Below are positions 14,929-16,300 of a stretch of DNA of 41,928 bases, one piece after another. The notes under the pieces were generated by a model. It was not told the DNA's origin. It made no database searches and saw nothing but the letters and a program-made list of their open reading frames with translations. The DNA lies in contig CBDDTI010000224.1 of assembly GCA_965233585.1 (NCBI GenBank), positions 1-41,928 on the forward strand. Reading direction: 5' to 3'. The stretch is from a bacterium. Lineage in GTDB: Bacteria; SAR324; NAC60-12. A program made the position numbers and the translations under genes. The number at the start of each line of letters is the position of its first letter. Position 1 is the stretch's first letter.

Positions 14929-15684
14929 TTATTGCTTCAGACTTTTAAGACATCTGTATAAGGACATAACACTGACACCTAAAACACGAGCCGTATTTTT
15001 GACGCTTGGATATGGATTTTTTGTTTCTTTTAAAAAGGCATAAGCACATGCCGCCAATAAAGTTCTAGGAGCAAAAGAACTATTTTCATTCTTATCCAGT
15101 TTTTCTTTAATGGACGACATTTCTTGATAGGTTAACTGTAGAGGCTGTAAAAAATATTCTGCCATATCTTTAGCCTTTATAGAATTTTCTGTTTTAATCG
15201 TGACAGCTAAATCTTGTCTGTATAATTTTATCCAACGCCACACCGTTTTTGGATTGATGTCAACTTCCTGACACAAATGACTTATTGGGCGGGGAATTTT
15301 TTCTTTTATTAAACCTTGATACAAAGTCATAACAACCAAGCCTTTTAAATTAATTTTAATTTTTCCGTTTTTTCGGTAATGCCACGCTGTTATTTCTGCC
15401 CACAAATTAAAAATAGCATTTGTGACATCATTATTTAAATGTAATTTACTGCATAAATTTTTTAAAAATTTTTTTTCTTTTCCCAAATGTTGATCGTTTT
15501 GTTCAATTTCTTTATTAAAATTTCTTATTTTTTCCCATTTTGTTTCTAAATTTGATTCGCAATATATTTTATCAATAACCAAACCACACTCAGTGCACAC
15601 TACGTCTCCTTGTCGGGTGTCTTCTATTAAATATTGATGATTGCACATCTTAATATAATCTAATTTTTTTGAACATAATTCCAT
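14929..15684 (-). CDS. TFIIB-like transcription initiation factor
   Basis: Zn ribbon CNH..LIEDTRQGDVVCTECGLVID, two cyclin-like repeats, and a C-terminal HTH SVKNTARVLGVSVMSLYR. Confidence 0.9.
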   Translation of the reverse strand: MELCSKKLDYIKMCNHQYLIEDTRQGDVVCTECGLVIDKIYCESNLETKWEKIRNFNKEIEQNDQHLGKEKKFLKNLCSKLHLNNDVTNAIFNLWAEITAWHYRKNGKIKINLKGLVVMTLYQGLIKEKIPRPISHLCQEVDINPKTVWRWIKLYRQDLAVTIKTENSIKAKDMAEYFLQPLQLTYQEMSSIKEKLDKNENSSFAPRTLLAACAYAFLKETKNPYPSVKNTARVLGVSVMSLYRCLKSLKQ

Positions 15685-15757
15685 TGTTTATTGAATGAAG
15701 ATCGAGATTCGACTGAAATACCAAATAAATGTGTGTAATGTTTTATTAGTATTGAAT

Positions 15758-16300
15758 TTATTCGGTTTTATATTTTTTAAACAATTCATAAATAATTTTA
15801 ATTCCTTGTTTAGCGTCTTGTTCGCTGGAAGCTCCAATTATTACTATTTTTCCAGACGAAAATAATAAAGCAGAACATTTTCTTAATGTTAAAAACATGC
15901 CAGGAAATTTTTCAGGATCATATCTCTTTTGCACAATTTCAAAATCTGCATTTATTTTTAGATTATTGAAAAATGTTGATAAATTAATTTCTGATTTTAT
16001 TTGATACAAACAAGTCATGTTTTCTATTTTAAACACTTCAATAATAAATTCGCTACTTATAACAAGTTTTAATTCGTCTAACGCTTTTGATATATGCTCT
16101 GTGGAAGGGATTTTAGTAATGTTTACGTGGAAATTTCGATTTTGCTTTGTTTTGGTAAACACAATAAAAGAATATTTTTTTTTAACAACGGTAAAATTAT
16201 TATAATGTTTCATTACATTATCAGTATTAAAAGAAATTTCATCACTGTTGATAAGACGAATTTTGCAACTGATTTTAACATTGCTAACCAACACTTCCAT
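15758..16300 (-). CDS. TATA-binding protein (TBP)-like
   Basis: Bipartite 180 aa core. The C-half FKIENM...YDPEKFPGM...SALLFSSGKIVIIGA matches TBP FKIQNM...YEPELFPGL...LIF.SGKVV.TGA. Confidence 0.92.
   Translation of the reverse strand: MEVLVSNVKISCKIRLINSDEISFNTDNVMKHYNNFTVVKKKYSFIVFTKTKQNRNFHVNITKIPSTEHISKALDELKLVISSEFIIEVFKIENMTCLYQIKSEINLSTFFNNLKINADFEIVQKRYDPEKFPGMFLTLRKCSALLFSSGKIVIIGASSEQDAKQGIKIIYELFKKYKTE

Follow-up and report, generated by a model that had tools for sequence, protein, structure and literature searches.

For transcription, transposons and small DNA viruses of the nucleus are generally supposed to depend on the general transcription factors of their hosts, and TBP and TFIIB homologues of their own are known from giant viruses and relatives of these. 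Could an integrating element of 23 kb carry such a pair as well, and what would the pair do for it? The question is raised by a 41,928-nt stretch of DNA (the window), in which an earlier note had placed adjacent TBP-like and TFIIB-like genes inside a Maverick/Polinton and had supposed that they bring host Pol II to the element's own late promoters. The two ORFs have exactly the coordinates claimed for them and are co-oriented, with 73 nt between:

14929..15684 (-), short TFIIB-like gene of copy 1, 251 aa (Pfam, AF2, Foldseek, family profile)
15758..16300 (-), TBP-like gene of copy 1, 180 aa (Pfam PF00352, PDB, AF2, Foldseek, family invariants)

We read the two genes as a minimal module, encoded by the element itself, that recognises promoters for host RNA polymerase II, and assign this reading a probability of about 0.58. 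Because conserved genes are present for two factors that bring Pol II to promoters, the element probably steers host transcription to its own genes.

The element and its two copies

Copy 1 of the element occupies positions 9572-32534 (23 kb) and has TIRs, an integrase of the rve-chromo type and genes that resemble those for capsid proteins, a protease and an ATPase:

9572..10061, left TIR, which starts with TGTAG and has internal tandem repeats of 53, 32 and 64 nt
11691..13424 (-), candidate capsid protein of 577 aa, by Atlas look-alikes only
13431..14513 (-), integrase; Pfam rve at 38.3 bits (cut-off 32.6) and C-terminal Chromo at 27.8 (cut-off 25.1)
14520..14921 (-), very basic protein of 133 aa, directly 3′ of the TFIIB gene; no Pfam family; dN/dS 0.12
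16309..17661 (+), candidate capsid protein of 450 aa, divergent from the TBP gene with 8 bp between the start codons
17668..18150 (+), adenain-like cysteine protease candidate of 160 aa, with sub-threshold Peptidase_C5
20200..20895 (-), A32/FtsK-like packaging ATPase candidate of 231 aa, with sub-threshold Pox_A32
32119..32534, right TIR, which ends with CTACA, 15 bp from the truncated start of copy 2

The two TIRs align over 479 nt at 80% (9572-10050 against 32534-32130), with the termini TGTAG...CTACA. Neither candidate capsid protein has a match in Pfam or PDB. Among Atlas look-alikes, which reflect language-model similarity and serve as a lead only, the 450-aa protein resembles clusters, mostly from arthropods, with PF21738 DJR-like_dom in 15-24% of their members, and the 577-aa protein resembles 617-640-aa proteins of Preplasmiviricota viruses. 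The protease candidate matches Pfam Peptidase_C5 with E 0.005 and 16.9 bits, below the cut-off of 21.3; its top PDB match is adenain (E 0.32), and His, Asp and Cys motifs can be picked out by eye. The ATPase candidate matches Pox_A32 with E 5e-4 and 20 bits, below the cut-off of 22.8, and Walker A (GPTSSGKT) and Walker B (LVVFDD) motifs are likewise visible by eye, while the PDB sequence search gave nothing relevant for it. The TBP/TFIIB pair is placed between the capsid- and protease-candidate genes and the integrase. This position agrees with the earlier description of the pair as lying in a morphogenesis block, but the capsid, protease and ATPase assignments are sub-threshold or made by look-alikes.

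The name Maverick/Polinton fits in its TIRs and rve integrase but not in its replicase. PolB or any other replicase was found neither in the named ORFs with Pfam, PHROGs and NCBIfam nor in the 20 + 106 stop-to-stop ORFs of at least 45 aa from the unassigned parts of copy 1. Because this hallmark, a protein-primed PolB, was not detected, the element is better called Polinton-like than a canonical Maverick/Polinton, and the term Polinton would apply to it only loosely. As had been claimed, no RNA polymerase was found in any ORF scanned of the element. PHROGs returned an endonuclease VII and one unknown family and nothing else useful, and Rfam and tRNA scans gave no match. A 6-bp target-site duplication was not found between the flanks GAGAAT and ACACAG, which is a weak test because the right flank is another, truncated copy. 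Together, the integrase, the TIRs and the presence of two integrated copies imply that the element has a nuclear life.

The second copy contains both genes of the pair:

34258..35013 (-), TFIIB-like gene of copy 2, an intact 251-aa ORF with 91.4% nucleotide identity
35087..35629 (-), TBP-like gene of copy 2, with a single frameshift at a poly-A run

Apart from this frameshift, no further stop occurs in either reading segment of the second TBP gene, so that TFIIB is indeed intact in both copies and the second TBP is broken only at a homopolymer. Frame-breaking indels are found in at least six further genes of copy 2, which is decaying. A comparison of the two copies gives dN/dS values of 0.13 for TBP and 0.23 for TFIIB; these are not near 1, as they might have been under the check that the earlier note proposed, and fall within the range of the other genes of the element (0.06-0.24). 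Both genes are kept under purifying selection.

TBP and TFIIB homologues and their families

Profile and fold searches bear out the identification of both proteins. The ORF at 15758-16300 matches Pfam PF00352 (TBP) with 65.9 bits (cut-off 22.9; E 3e-18), though at residues 90-177 only, and the same family is found in all 25 members examined of the TBP-like family. In a PDB sequence search, 35 of 35 significant matches are TBPs. The AF2 model has a pLDDT of 91.8 and its Foldseek matches listed down to rank 44 are all TBPs, aligned at full length over about 190-200 columns with TMq values of 0.53-0.72. In this model the S1-S5/H2 elements are present twice and would form a two-repeat saddle, by prediction only, in which the N-terminal repeat is without helix H1. 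By profile and predicted fold, the ORF thus encodes a TBP homologue that consists of the core saddle alone.

The C-terminal repeat of this protein is canonical and the N-terminal repeat is highly diverged. The latter is not detectable by sequence with Pfam or hhalign, and the earlier wording that the N-terminal half is strongly diverged is correct, because hhalign finds no sequence similarity between the two halves (probability 0.35%). Since the N-terminal half cannot be recognised in this way, the roles of its residues are deduced from predicted topology. Nine residues, N7, N94, F36, F48, F132, F147, E130, K131 and P133, do not vary among the 25 family members compared. The four Phe and two Asn of the earlier note are among them, with a putative place on the DNA face; of these residues, F132 and F147 align directly to archaeal TBP, and F36, F48, N7 and N94 are placed by predicted strand topology only. 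The stirrup YDPEKF, described earlier as acidic and TFIIB-binding, keeps its acidic residue across the family in one position but not in the other: E130 is invariant, but the first acidic residue, D128, varies (D, N, R or S). Next to E130, which we take to be the position of yeast E188, stands an invariant Lys at a position where cellular TBP has Leu, presumably that of yeast L189. Roles for the four Phe and for acidic stirrup residues of TBP (E188) are given in the cited parts of PMC12529657 and PMC13626347.

The TFIIB-like protein is laid out as a C-x-H...C-x2-C zinc ribbon (residues 14-33), a linker helix (46-63) and two cyclin repeats (68-159 and 171-250). The ribbon, which had been reported as kept, reaches 33.8 bits with Pfam Zn_Ribbon_TF (PF08271; cut-off 29). 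Of its ligands, C14, C30 and C33 do not vary among 50 family sequences, and H16 is conserved in at least 90% of them; the ribbon of human TFIIB has the same Cys3-His pattern. With the Pfam TFIIB repeat (PF00382), the window protein by itself scores 17.6 bits, below the cut-off of 23.6, and in its family the ribbon is found in 41 of 50 members and the repeat in 32 of 50. NCBIfam models of archaeal TBP and TFB were matched far below their cut-offs. In the AF2 model (pLDDT 87.2), the ribbon and the single helix 46-63 are followed by two sets of five helices, and Foldseek ranks TFIIB chains of Pol II PICs highest; the core superimposes on 1ais_B with a TMt of 0.74 and an rmsd of 3.2 and on 1c9b_A with a TMt of 0.70. 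The family profile aligns to human TFIIB with E 5e-29, ribbon and both repeats being collinear. It scores human TFIIB at 104.9 bits, yeast TFIIB at 71.8, archaeal TFB at 63.4, Brf1 at 61.3 and Brf2 at 43.3. The cyclin core is accordingly retained, with the C-terminal HTH that the earlier note had described.

The shortening of the B-reader/linker that the earlier note had seen is likewise borne out. Only about 28 residues, with one low-confidence helix (46-63) in the AF2 model, separate the ribbon from the core, and the profile alignment of the family has a gap of about 49 residues against human TFIIB. By these two comparisons most of the B-reader and B-linker is missing, parts on which canonical TFIIB depends to select start sites and to open DNA. 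The ORF at 14929-15684 is, on profile and model evidence, a short TFIIB homologue with a truncated reader/linker.

Both proteins belong to families of clusters that are nearly all without names. The TBP-like family comprises 77 clusters and is conserved down to 39% identity; the TFIIB-like protein falls into a clade of about 30 clusters within a wider radiation of at least 219. Across 27 sequences of the near TFIIB family, with identities down to 38%, 35 columns are invariant, and in a FastTree of 202 TFIIB-like proteins without a named outgroup this near family (33 rows) forms one clade with an SH-like support of 97. Clusters of the TBP family and of the TFIIB family have identical 'longest contig' sizes in 11 cases, against 1.29 expected and a maximum of 6 among 2000 controls, and the size-matched pairs diverge in parallel (identities of 48-83% for TBP and 42-89% for TFIIB). 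By this coincidence of sizes, the relatives of TBP and TFIIB seem to share contigs. A scan of genome contigs gave only two loci, both in prokaryotic MAGs, one of a Thermoplasmatota archaeon and one of Candidatus Angelobacter, with partial matches of 33-37%.

Beyond its own family, the TBP profile found archaeal TBPs only (15 of 92 matches, E ~1e-20), and PDB bit scores, a crude stand-in for phylogeny, are 81-83 for archaeal and 55-63 for eukaryotic TBPs. Against solved cellular TBP and TFIIB, the two proteins reach identities of 11-27%; their ORFs are intronless and have a GC3 of 0.20-0.25, the lowest in the element. Because of this low identity and lowest GC3, neither gene looks like a recent host capture, the origin that the earlier note had named as one that would speak against its proposal.

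Candidate promoters and the role of the pair

Recruitment of host Pol II to late promoters is the best reading of the pair, for which the data at hand are a post-hoc enrichment of TATTWAA upstream of the element's genes. Four of the sites are as follows:

16225..16231 (+), TATTAAA box, 84 nt upstream of the 450-aa gene and inside the TBP coding region; in copy 2 at 35553-35559
17616..17622 (+), TATTAAA box, 52 nt upstream of the protease gene; in copy 2 at 36944-36950
20180..20186 (-), TATTTAA box, 34 nt upstream of a 124-aa gene; in copy 2 at 39258-39264
20933..20939 (-), TATTTAA box, 44 nt upstream of the ATPase gene; in copy 2 at 40011-40017

The motif was picked after looking. Of 22 ORFs, 7, four of them morphogenesis genes, have it in sense orientation in the 100 nt that precede them, and 1 of 22 has it on the antisense strand. 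Random windows give an expectation of 1.48 such ORFs and dinucleotide shuffles one of 2.52; totals of seven or more came up in 3 of 5000 trials with the former and 10 of 2000 with the latter. Four sites are conserved in copy 2. Over the whole window the excess of TATTWAA is modest (48 against 36.3 +/- 6.0), and TATAWAW is not enriched (45 against 41.4). In an unbiased scan of promoter k-mers nothing stood out enough to survive multiple-testing correction, the best 7-mer being AAATTAT (7 of 22 ORFs against 0.95 expected, uncorrected p 2.6e-5). The TATTWAA boxes are thus a post-hoc lead to candidate promoter elements. Expression from few promoters with splicing is an equally possible mode, because the divergent start codons lie 8 bp apart and acceptor-like sites precede several ORFs.

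The results above address homology, fold, conservation, linkage and selection; for DNA binding, the mutual binding of the pair, the polymerase used and the promoters targeted, we infer the following scheme. The TBP-like protein would bind and bend an A/T-rich box in the element's own promoters; candidate boxes are the TATTWAA sites upstream of the capsid-candidate, protease, ATPase and neighbouring genes. The short TFIIB-like protein would then bind the C-terminal stirrup of TBP and the flanking DNA through its two cyclin repeats, and its zinc ribbon would dock host Pol II. What speaks against the scheme is that little of the reader and linker is left, that the window protein by itself falls short of the cyclin-repeat cut-off, that sequence does not reveal the N-terminal half of TBP, and that the stirrup has a variable D128 and a Lys for Leu. 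The truncated reader/linker and the invariant stirrup Lys suggest a co-adapted pair that may stand partly apart from host TBP and TFIIB. A stronger version, which we hold only tentatively and consider a good deal less probable than Pol II recruitment as such, is an orthogonal, self-contained initiation in which the TBP stirrup with Lys for Leu and the TFIIB without reader/linker are co-adapted, pair with each other in preference to host factors and load host Pol II onto TATT-type boxes of the morphogenesis genes, of which the box of the 450-aa capsid-candidate gene is embedded in the TBP coding sequence. If this were true, a small integrating virus would have gained the TFIID-independent control of late genes that herpesviruses achieve with unrelated proteins, and further systems of this kind, in large number, would be indicated by the 219 clusters of the short TFIIB-like radiation.

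Four other roles have to be weighed against a module for host Pol II. First, the pair might be aimed at the host, either as a decoy or competitor that diverts or blocks the host's TBP/TFIIB-dependent initiation or as a pair of the Brf or Rrn7 type, with Pol III or Pol I as the polymerase recruited. A TFIIB with a truncated reader/linker could indeed bind without opening DNA, Brf1 and Brf2 are among the fold matches, and one source gives some distant members of the family the name TFIIIB Brf1/TFIIB. However, the scores of Brf1 and Brf2 stay well under that of TFIIB, the 251-aa protein has no Brf C-terminal extension, the DNA-face residues of TBP are invariant although a pure protein decoy would not need them, and TATTWAA sites lie upstream of the element's own genes. 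We therefore consider such a host-directed role rather unlikely.

Second, and slightly less probable, the pair might serve a viral polymerase, the element being virophage-like and transcribed by what a large DNA virus in the same cell provides, a virus whose own TBP/TFIIB-like factors work with a viral polymerase. When the TFIIB model is compared with BFVD, its named viral neighbours in structure all come from large DNA viruses, among them arthropod iridoviruses and an ascovirus, or from an archaeal virus, and poxvirus VITF-3, according to the cited part of PMC12917281, is a TBP/TFIIB-like pair working for a viral polymerase. Yet identity to those viral proteins is only 7-18%, and the family profile gives its highest score to cellular Pol II TFIIB. 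The chromodomain integrase and the two copies in a chromosome-like context point to the nucleus instead, and no helper-virus signature was seen in the window.

Third, the TFIIB-like protein might mainly be an HTH DNA-binding protein for transposition or packaging, its likeness to TFIIB being structural only. Residues 133-165 match Pfam HTH_23 (26.9 bits, cut-off 24.6) and HTH_Tnp_1 (26.9 bits, cut-off 24.1), and an NCBIfam IS3 transposase model is matched with E 7e-7, far below its cut-off. This HTH falls within the first cyclin repeat, however, just as it does in TFIIB, and the collinear alignment to human TFIIB, the ribbon and repeat counts in the family and the apparent linkage to a TBP gene all make this role improbable, more so than the two preceding ones. 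Finally, that the genes are functionless passengers, captured recently from a host or decaying like copy 2 with its frameshifted TBP, is contradicted by the low dN/dS of both genes, by the breadth of the TBP family with its invariant key residues and by the low cellular identity, intronless ORFs and lowest GC3 described above, and has hardly any probability left.

A module for host Pol II, if it is one, would matter in several respects. No smaller carrier of such a module would be known than this integrating element of 23 kb with its conserved TBP-TFIIB pair. Recruitment of Pol II could be studied on a pair that is natural, minimal and possibly orthogonal, its TFIIB lacking the reader/linker and its TBP having an N-terminal repeat that is almost unrecognisable. 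It could explain how such elements escape promoter control or silencing by the host. The two families, with 77 and at least 219 clusters, would be a ready marker for related elements in genome and metagenome data.

Comparison with known systems

Searches of openly accessible full texts, figures and supplements aside, turned up no account of TBP and TFIIB as a pair in any Polinton, Maverick, adintovirus or polinton-like virus. In passages from some of the papers that name both polinton and TFIIB, TFIIB figures as a giant-virus gene or as a phylogenetic marker. The novelty of the pair is nevertheless narrower than had been implied, given a TBP in a figure legend on MELD viruses (PMC8502044) and TFIIB and TFIID in chloroviruses (PMC7019647). 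In the former case, the legend of Figure 5 lists for MELD viruses, which have an adintovirus-like PolB, a gene 'similar to TATA binding proteins' (Starrett et al. 2021, PMC8502044). This is, like the present element, a map of a mid-size Polinton-related virus with a TBP gene, but the gene is named in the legend alone, within a section that deals with non-animal datasets, and TFIIB has 0 occurrences in the text.

Chloroviruses (PBCV-1) have no recognisable DNA-dependent RNA polymerase, use the host nucleus and encode putative TFIIB and TFIID, according to the cited part of PMC7019647, and TFIIB is called a hallmark gene kept by chloroviruses in that of PMC11847008. They resemble the element in having TFIIB/TFIID genes without an RNA polymerase of their own, a likeness by description only. 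Unlike the element, they are 280-370 kb in size, non-integrated and algal, and their TFIIB and TFIID are not described there as an adjacent pair, whereas the element has 23 kb, an integrase, a TFIIB cut to 251 aa and a very diverged TBP. The proposed "Ariadnavirales" are nucleocytoviricots that, in the part of the preprint cited (bioRxiv 10.64898/2026.08.29.747986), have lost DNA and RNA polymerases and kept a TFIIB homologue, which is read as nuclear dependence. A TFIIB homologue without either polymerase is also what the element has, but the "Ariadnavirales" keep VLTF2 and VLTF3, belong to another virus phylum and have protist hosts, and TBP is unmentioned in that part.

Beta- and gamma-herpesviruses are nuclear DNA viruses without a polymerase of their own that possess a TBP-like protein, and thus resemble the element. 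KSHV ORF24, as described in the cited part of PMC12529657, is a TBP mimic with four essential Phe that acts at TATTWAA late promoters and captures host Pol II. However, this mimic binds Pol II directly and is predicted there to be incompatible with TFIIB, whereas both proteins of the element are recognisable by profile as TBP and TFIIB homologues and the acidic stirrup residue E130 is kept. In poxviruses (VITF-3) and African swine fever virus (TFIIB/TBP homologues), a viral TBP/TFIIB-like pair is described, in the sources as far as cited, for viral promoters. These viruses are among the structural neighbours in BFVD; they differ in that they encode a multisubunit polymerase, none of which was found in the element. 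From the cellular Pol II PIC, finally, the element's proteins differ by their low identity, by a TBP N-terminal repeat modelled without helix H1, by the change of the stirrup Leu to Lys and by some 49 missing reader/linker residues, but they share with it the predicted fold and the domain order, the ribbon ligands, what are probably the paired Phe and Asn, the E-x-F-P core of the stirrup and the two cyclin repeats.

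Gene arrangement and nature of the element

The adjacent, co-oriented TBP-like and TFIIB-like genes claimed in the earlier note are confirmed as two minus-strand ORFs (15758-16300, 180 aa, and 14929-15684, 251 aa) separated by 73 nt. They belong to a compact minus-strand block in which the TBP-like and TFIIB-like genes are followed, in this order, by those for a 133-aa basic protein, a chromodomain-bearing rve integrase and a 577-aa protein. The plus-strand genes for a 450-aa protein and a protease-like protein are divergent from this block, and only 8 bp separate the start codons of the block and of the 450-aa gene.

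Copy 1 of the element (9572-32534) is flanked by inverted repeats of ~480 nt and has the termini TGTAG...CTACA, at which no matching flank duplication was found. The integrase and chromodomain score above the Pfam cut-offs; the protease and ATPase matches fall below them, with catalytic and Walker motifs visible. The 450-aa and 577-aa proteins are capsid candidates solely as language-model look-alikes, and neither has a match in PDB or Pfam. The scanned ORFs of the element yielded no match to a family-B polymerase, to any other replicase or to an RNA polymerase; as to RNA polymerase, this agrees with the earlier note. Therefore, the element is best called Polinton-like and integrating rather than a canonical Polinton: of the Maverick/Polinton assignment, the integrase and inverted repeats stand, whereas the family-B polymerase was not found in the scanned ORFs and the capsid genes are look-alikes only.

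Further features of the window are as follows.

4484-5113, minus strand: THAP zinc-finger ORF (29.2 bits, cut-off 23.9), in the left flank outside the element
7278-9617, plus strand: 756/779-aa ORF in a stretch of 50-57% GC
18163-19776, minus strand: C2H2-type zinc-finger ORF (537 aa), near or below Pfam cut-offs
26683-27402, minus strand: C2H2-type zinc-finger ORF, near or below Pfam cut-offs
22121-22670 and 41172-41762: tandem repeats of 69 nt (8 copies) and 33/66 nt (9-18 copies)

No Pfam family matches the 756/779-aa ORF, which abounds in charged and low-complexity segments and overlaps the left inverted repeat by ~45 nt. The 537-aa ORF contains internal repeats of 111 nt, and its copy-2 counterpart is badly decayed; the two C2H2 ORFs could be further element-encoded DNA-binding regulators. 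The tandem repeats, GC-rich and open in several frames, occupy the same relative position in both copies, and their sole family match is weak and collagen-like. Only small ORFs occupy the right-hand 9 kb (22742-32119), among them one with an endonuclease VII domain and one for a C2H2 zinc-finger protein; a strong G-over-C skew marks 28-32 kb.

The two proteins and their families

The TBP-like ORF matches Pfam TBP with 65.9 bits (cut-off 22.9) within residues 90-177 only. All 35 significant matches in a PDB sequence search are TBPs, archaeal ones scoring best (1.8e-16 vs ~1e-12 for yeast). The N-terminal half is strongly diverged, as had been proposed: it has no Pfam match by sequence and no likeness to the C-half by hhalign (probability 0.35%). 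A model from 25 family members (pLDDT 91.8) contains the strand/helix set of the TBP repeat twice, the predicted N-repeat being without helix H1. In the suggested Foldseek check, all listed matches to rank 44 are TBPs, with full-length alignments (TMq 0.53-0.72, 17-27% identity). The claimed key residues hold in large part: four Phe (F36, F48, F132, F147), two Asn (N7, N94) and the stirrup E130 are invariant in 25/25 sequences, as are K131 and P133, but the acidic position preceding the stirrup Glu varies. F132, F147 and the stirrup Y-x-P-E-K-F-P-G come from direct alignment to archaeal TBP, and the N-half residues are positioned by predicted topology only. The Leu position of the TBP stirrup is an invariant Lys in this family. 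The stirrup Glu that is kept corresponds to E188 of yeast TBP, which two papers describe as required for TFIIB binding (PMC13626347, PMC12529657). The family comprises 77 clusters at E <= 2e-30; the next matches, 15 archaeal-type TBPs, follow only near 1e-20.

In the TFIIB-like ORF, the zinc ribbon claimed previously scores above its Pfam cut-off (33.8 vs 29) and the cyclin repeat below (17.6 vs 23.6). The model (pLDDT 87.2) consists of a three-stranded ribbon, an ill-defined single helix (46-63) and two five-helix repeats. Foldseek matches it best to TFIIB from human and yeast Pol II pre-initiation complexes, with archaeal TFB, Brf1, Brf2 and cyclins placed lower. Human TFIIB aligns collinearly with the family profile (E 5e-29), and ~49 of its reader/linker residues have no counterpart, which bears out the claimed shortening of the B-reader/linker. 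With a threshold of E <= 1e-3, exhaustive searching recovered 219 clusters, most of them 200-290 aa long. In an alignment of 50 members, the TFIIB ribbon is recognised in 41 and the TFIIB repeat in 32. The near family has 35 invariant columns over 27 sequences, with identity down to 38%, and forms a single clade (SH-like support 97; FastTree, 202 rows, midpoint root, no named outgroup). The radiation of 219 short clusters also includes a large distant subfamily (P0121, P0272-P0313 and others; ~255 aa, ~20% identity to the window protein), besides other clades. Some of these distant proteins occur on as many as 62 contigs and carry the name TFIIIB Brf1/TFIIB in one source.

Two copies, selection and apparent linkage

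From its start at 32550 to the end of the window, copy 2 corresponds to copy 1 from 13218 onward. It begins within its own 577-aa gene, at the equivalent of copy-1 13218, and 15 bp separate it from the right end of copy 1 (window 32534-32550). Its absent left part was not found left of copy 1, so simple nested insertion does not account for the layout.

Comparison of the copies gives dN/dS values of 0.13 (TBP) and 0.23 (TFIIB) at dS ~0.26-0.29; they are not near 1 and lie within the range of six other element genes (0.06-0.24). Copy 1 (9572-32534) has no recognisable DNA polymerase or replicase, though its genes are under purifying selection. Just as the earlier note read it, copy-2 TFIIB is intact and copy-2 TBP carries one frameshift at a poly-A run with no further stop; at least six other copy-2 genes have frame-breaking indels. 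Truncated 134-aa TBP-like forms resembling copy 2 occur in several database clusters (P0008, P0009, P0011, P0012; 83-88% identity). Their recurrence suggests that the break may have arisen repeatedly at one homopolymer run, through slippage or through errors in sequencing.

Clusters of the TBP and TFIIB families coincide exactly in their 'longest contig' length 11 times (controls: 1.29 expected, maximum 6 in 2000), which suggests that relatives of the two genes share contigs, and the divergence of the two proteins is parallel within matched cluster pairs.

Candidate promoters, proposed mechanism and known systems

The most economical reading, a plausible one, is that a private TBP-TFIIB pair would load host Pol II onto element promoters, since the element has an integrase, two genomic copies and no polymerase of its own, and its TFIIB most resembles that of Pol II. 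A sense-strand TATTWAA motif occurs no more than 100 nt upstream of 7/22 ORFs (the 450-aa gene, protease, 124-aa gene, ATPase and three small ORFs); on the antisense strand, these windows contain it in 1/22. Random windows give 1.48 (seven or more in 3/5000 trials) and dinucleotide shuffles 2.52 (10/2000); four sites are conserved in copy 2. The motif was chosen post hoc, with a view to the herpesvirus late box, after a k-mer scan of upstream regions that yielded nothing robust on its own. As a hypothetical element promoter box, it is a post-hoc lead supporting host Pol II loading.

A few bases before the start codons of the 127-aa, 577-aa, TFIIB-like, 239-aa zinc-finger and 95-aa ORFs there are pyrimidine-rich tracts that end in CAG (10880-10906, 13425-13445, 15700-15720, 27403-27425, 29914-29930). 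These tracts, which resemble splice acceptors, suggest that such ORFs may be joined by splicing to a shared leader, with few promoters; spliced transcripts of this kind would seem to fit a single late promoter equally well.

Recruitment of host Pol II by the pair would have viral parallels. Chloroviruses are reported to encode no RNA polymerase, to use the nucleus and to carry putative TFIIB and TFIID genes (PMC7019647), and a preprint on the proposed "Ariadnavirales" describes loss of both polymerases with TFIIB retained (bioRxiv 10.64898/2026.08.29.747986). Herpesvirus ORF24 is described as a TBP mimic acting on TATTWAA late promoters (PMC12529657), and TBP as often present in mirusviruses (PMC10132985). 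The named BFVD structural neighbours of the TFIIB-like model are all giant-virus or archaeal-virus proteins (7-18% identity). An adintovirus paper has a 'TBP' entry in a figure legend on MELD viruses and its text never mentions TFIIB (PMC8502044); searches of full-text literature found no description of a TBP-TFIIB pair in a Polinton-like element. Virus-encoded TBP or TFIIB serving a borrowed polymerase is already known, and what differs here is the small integrating element and its unusual, trimmed proteins.
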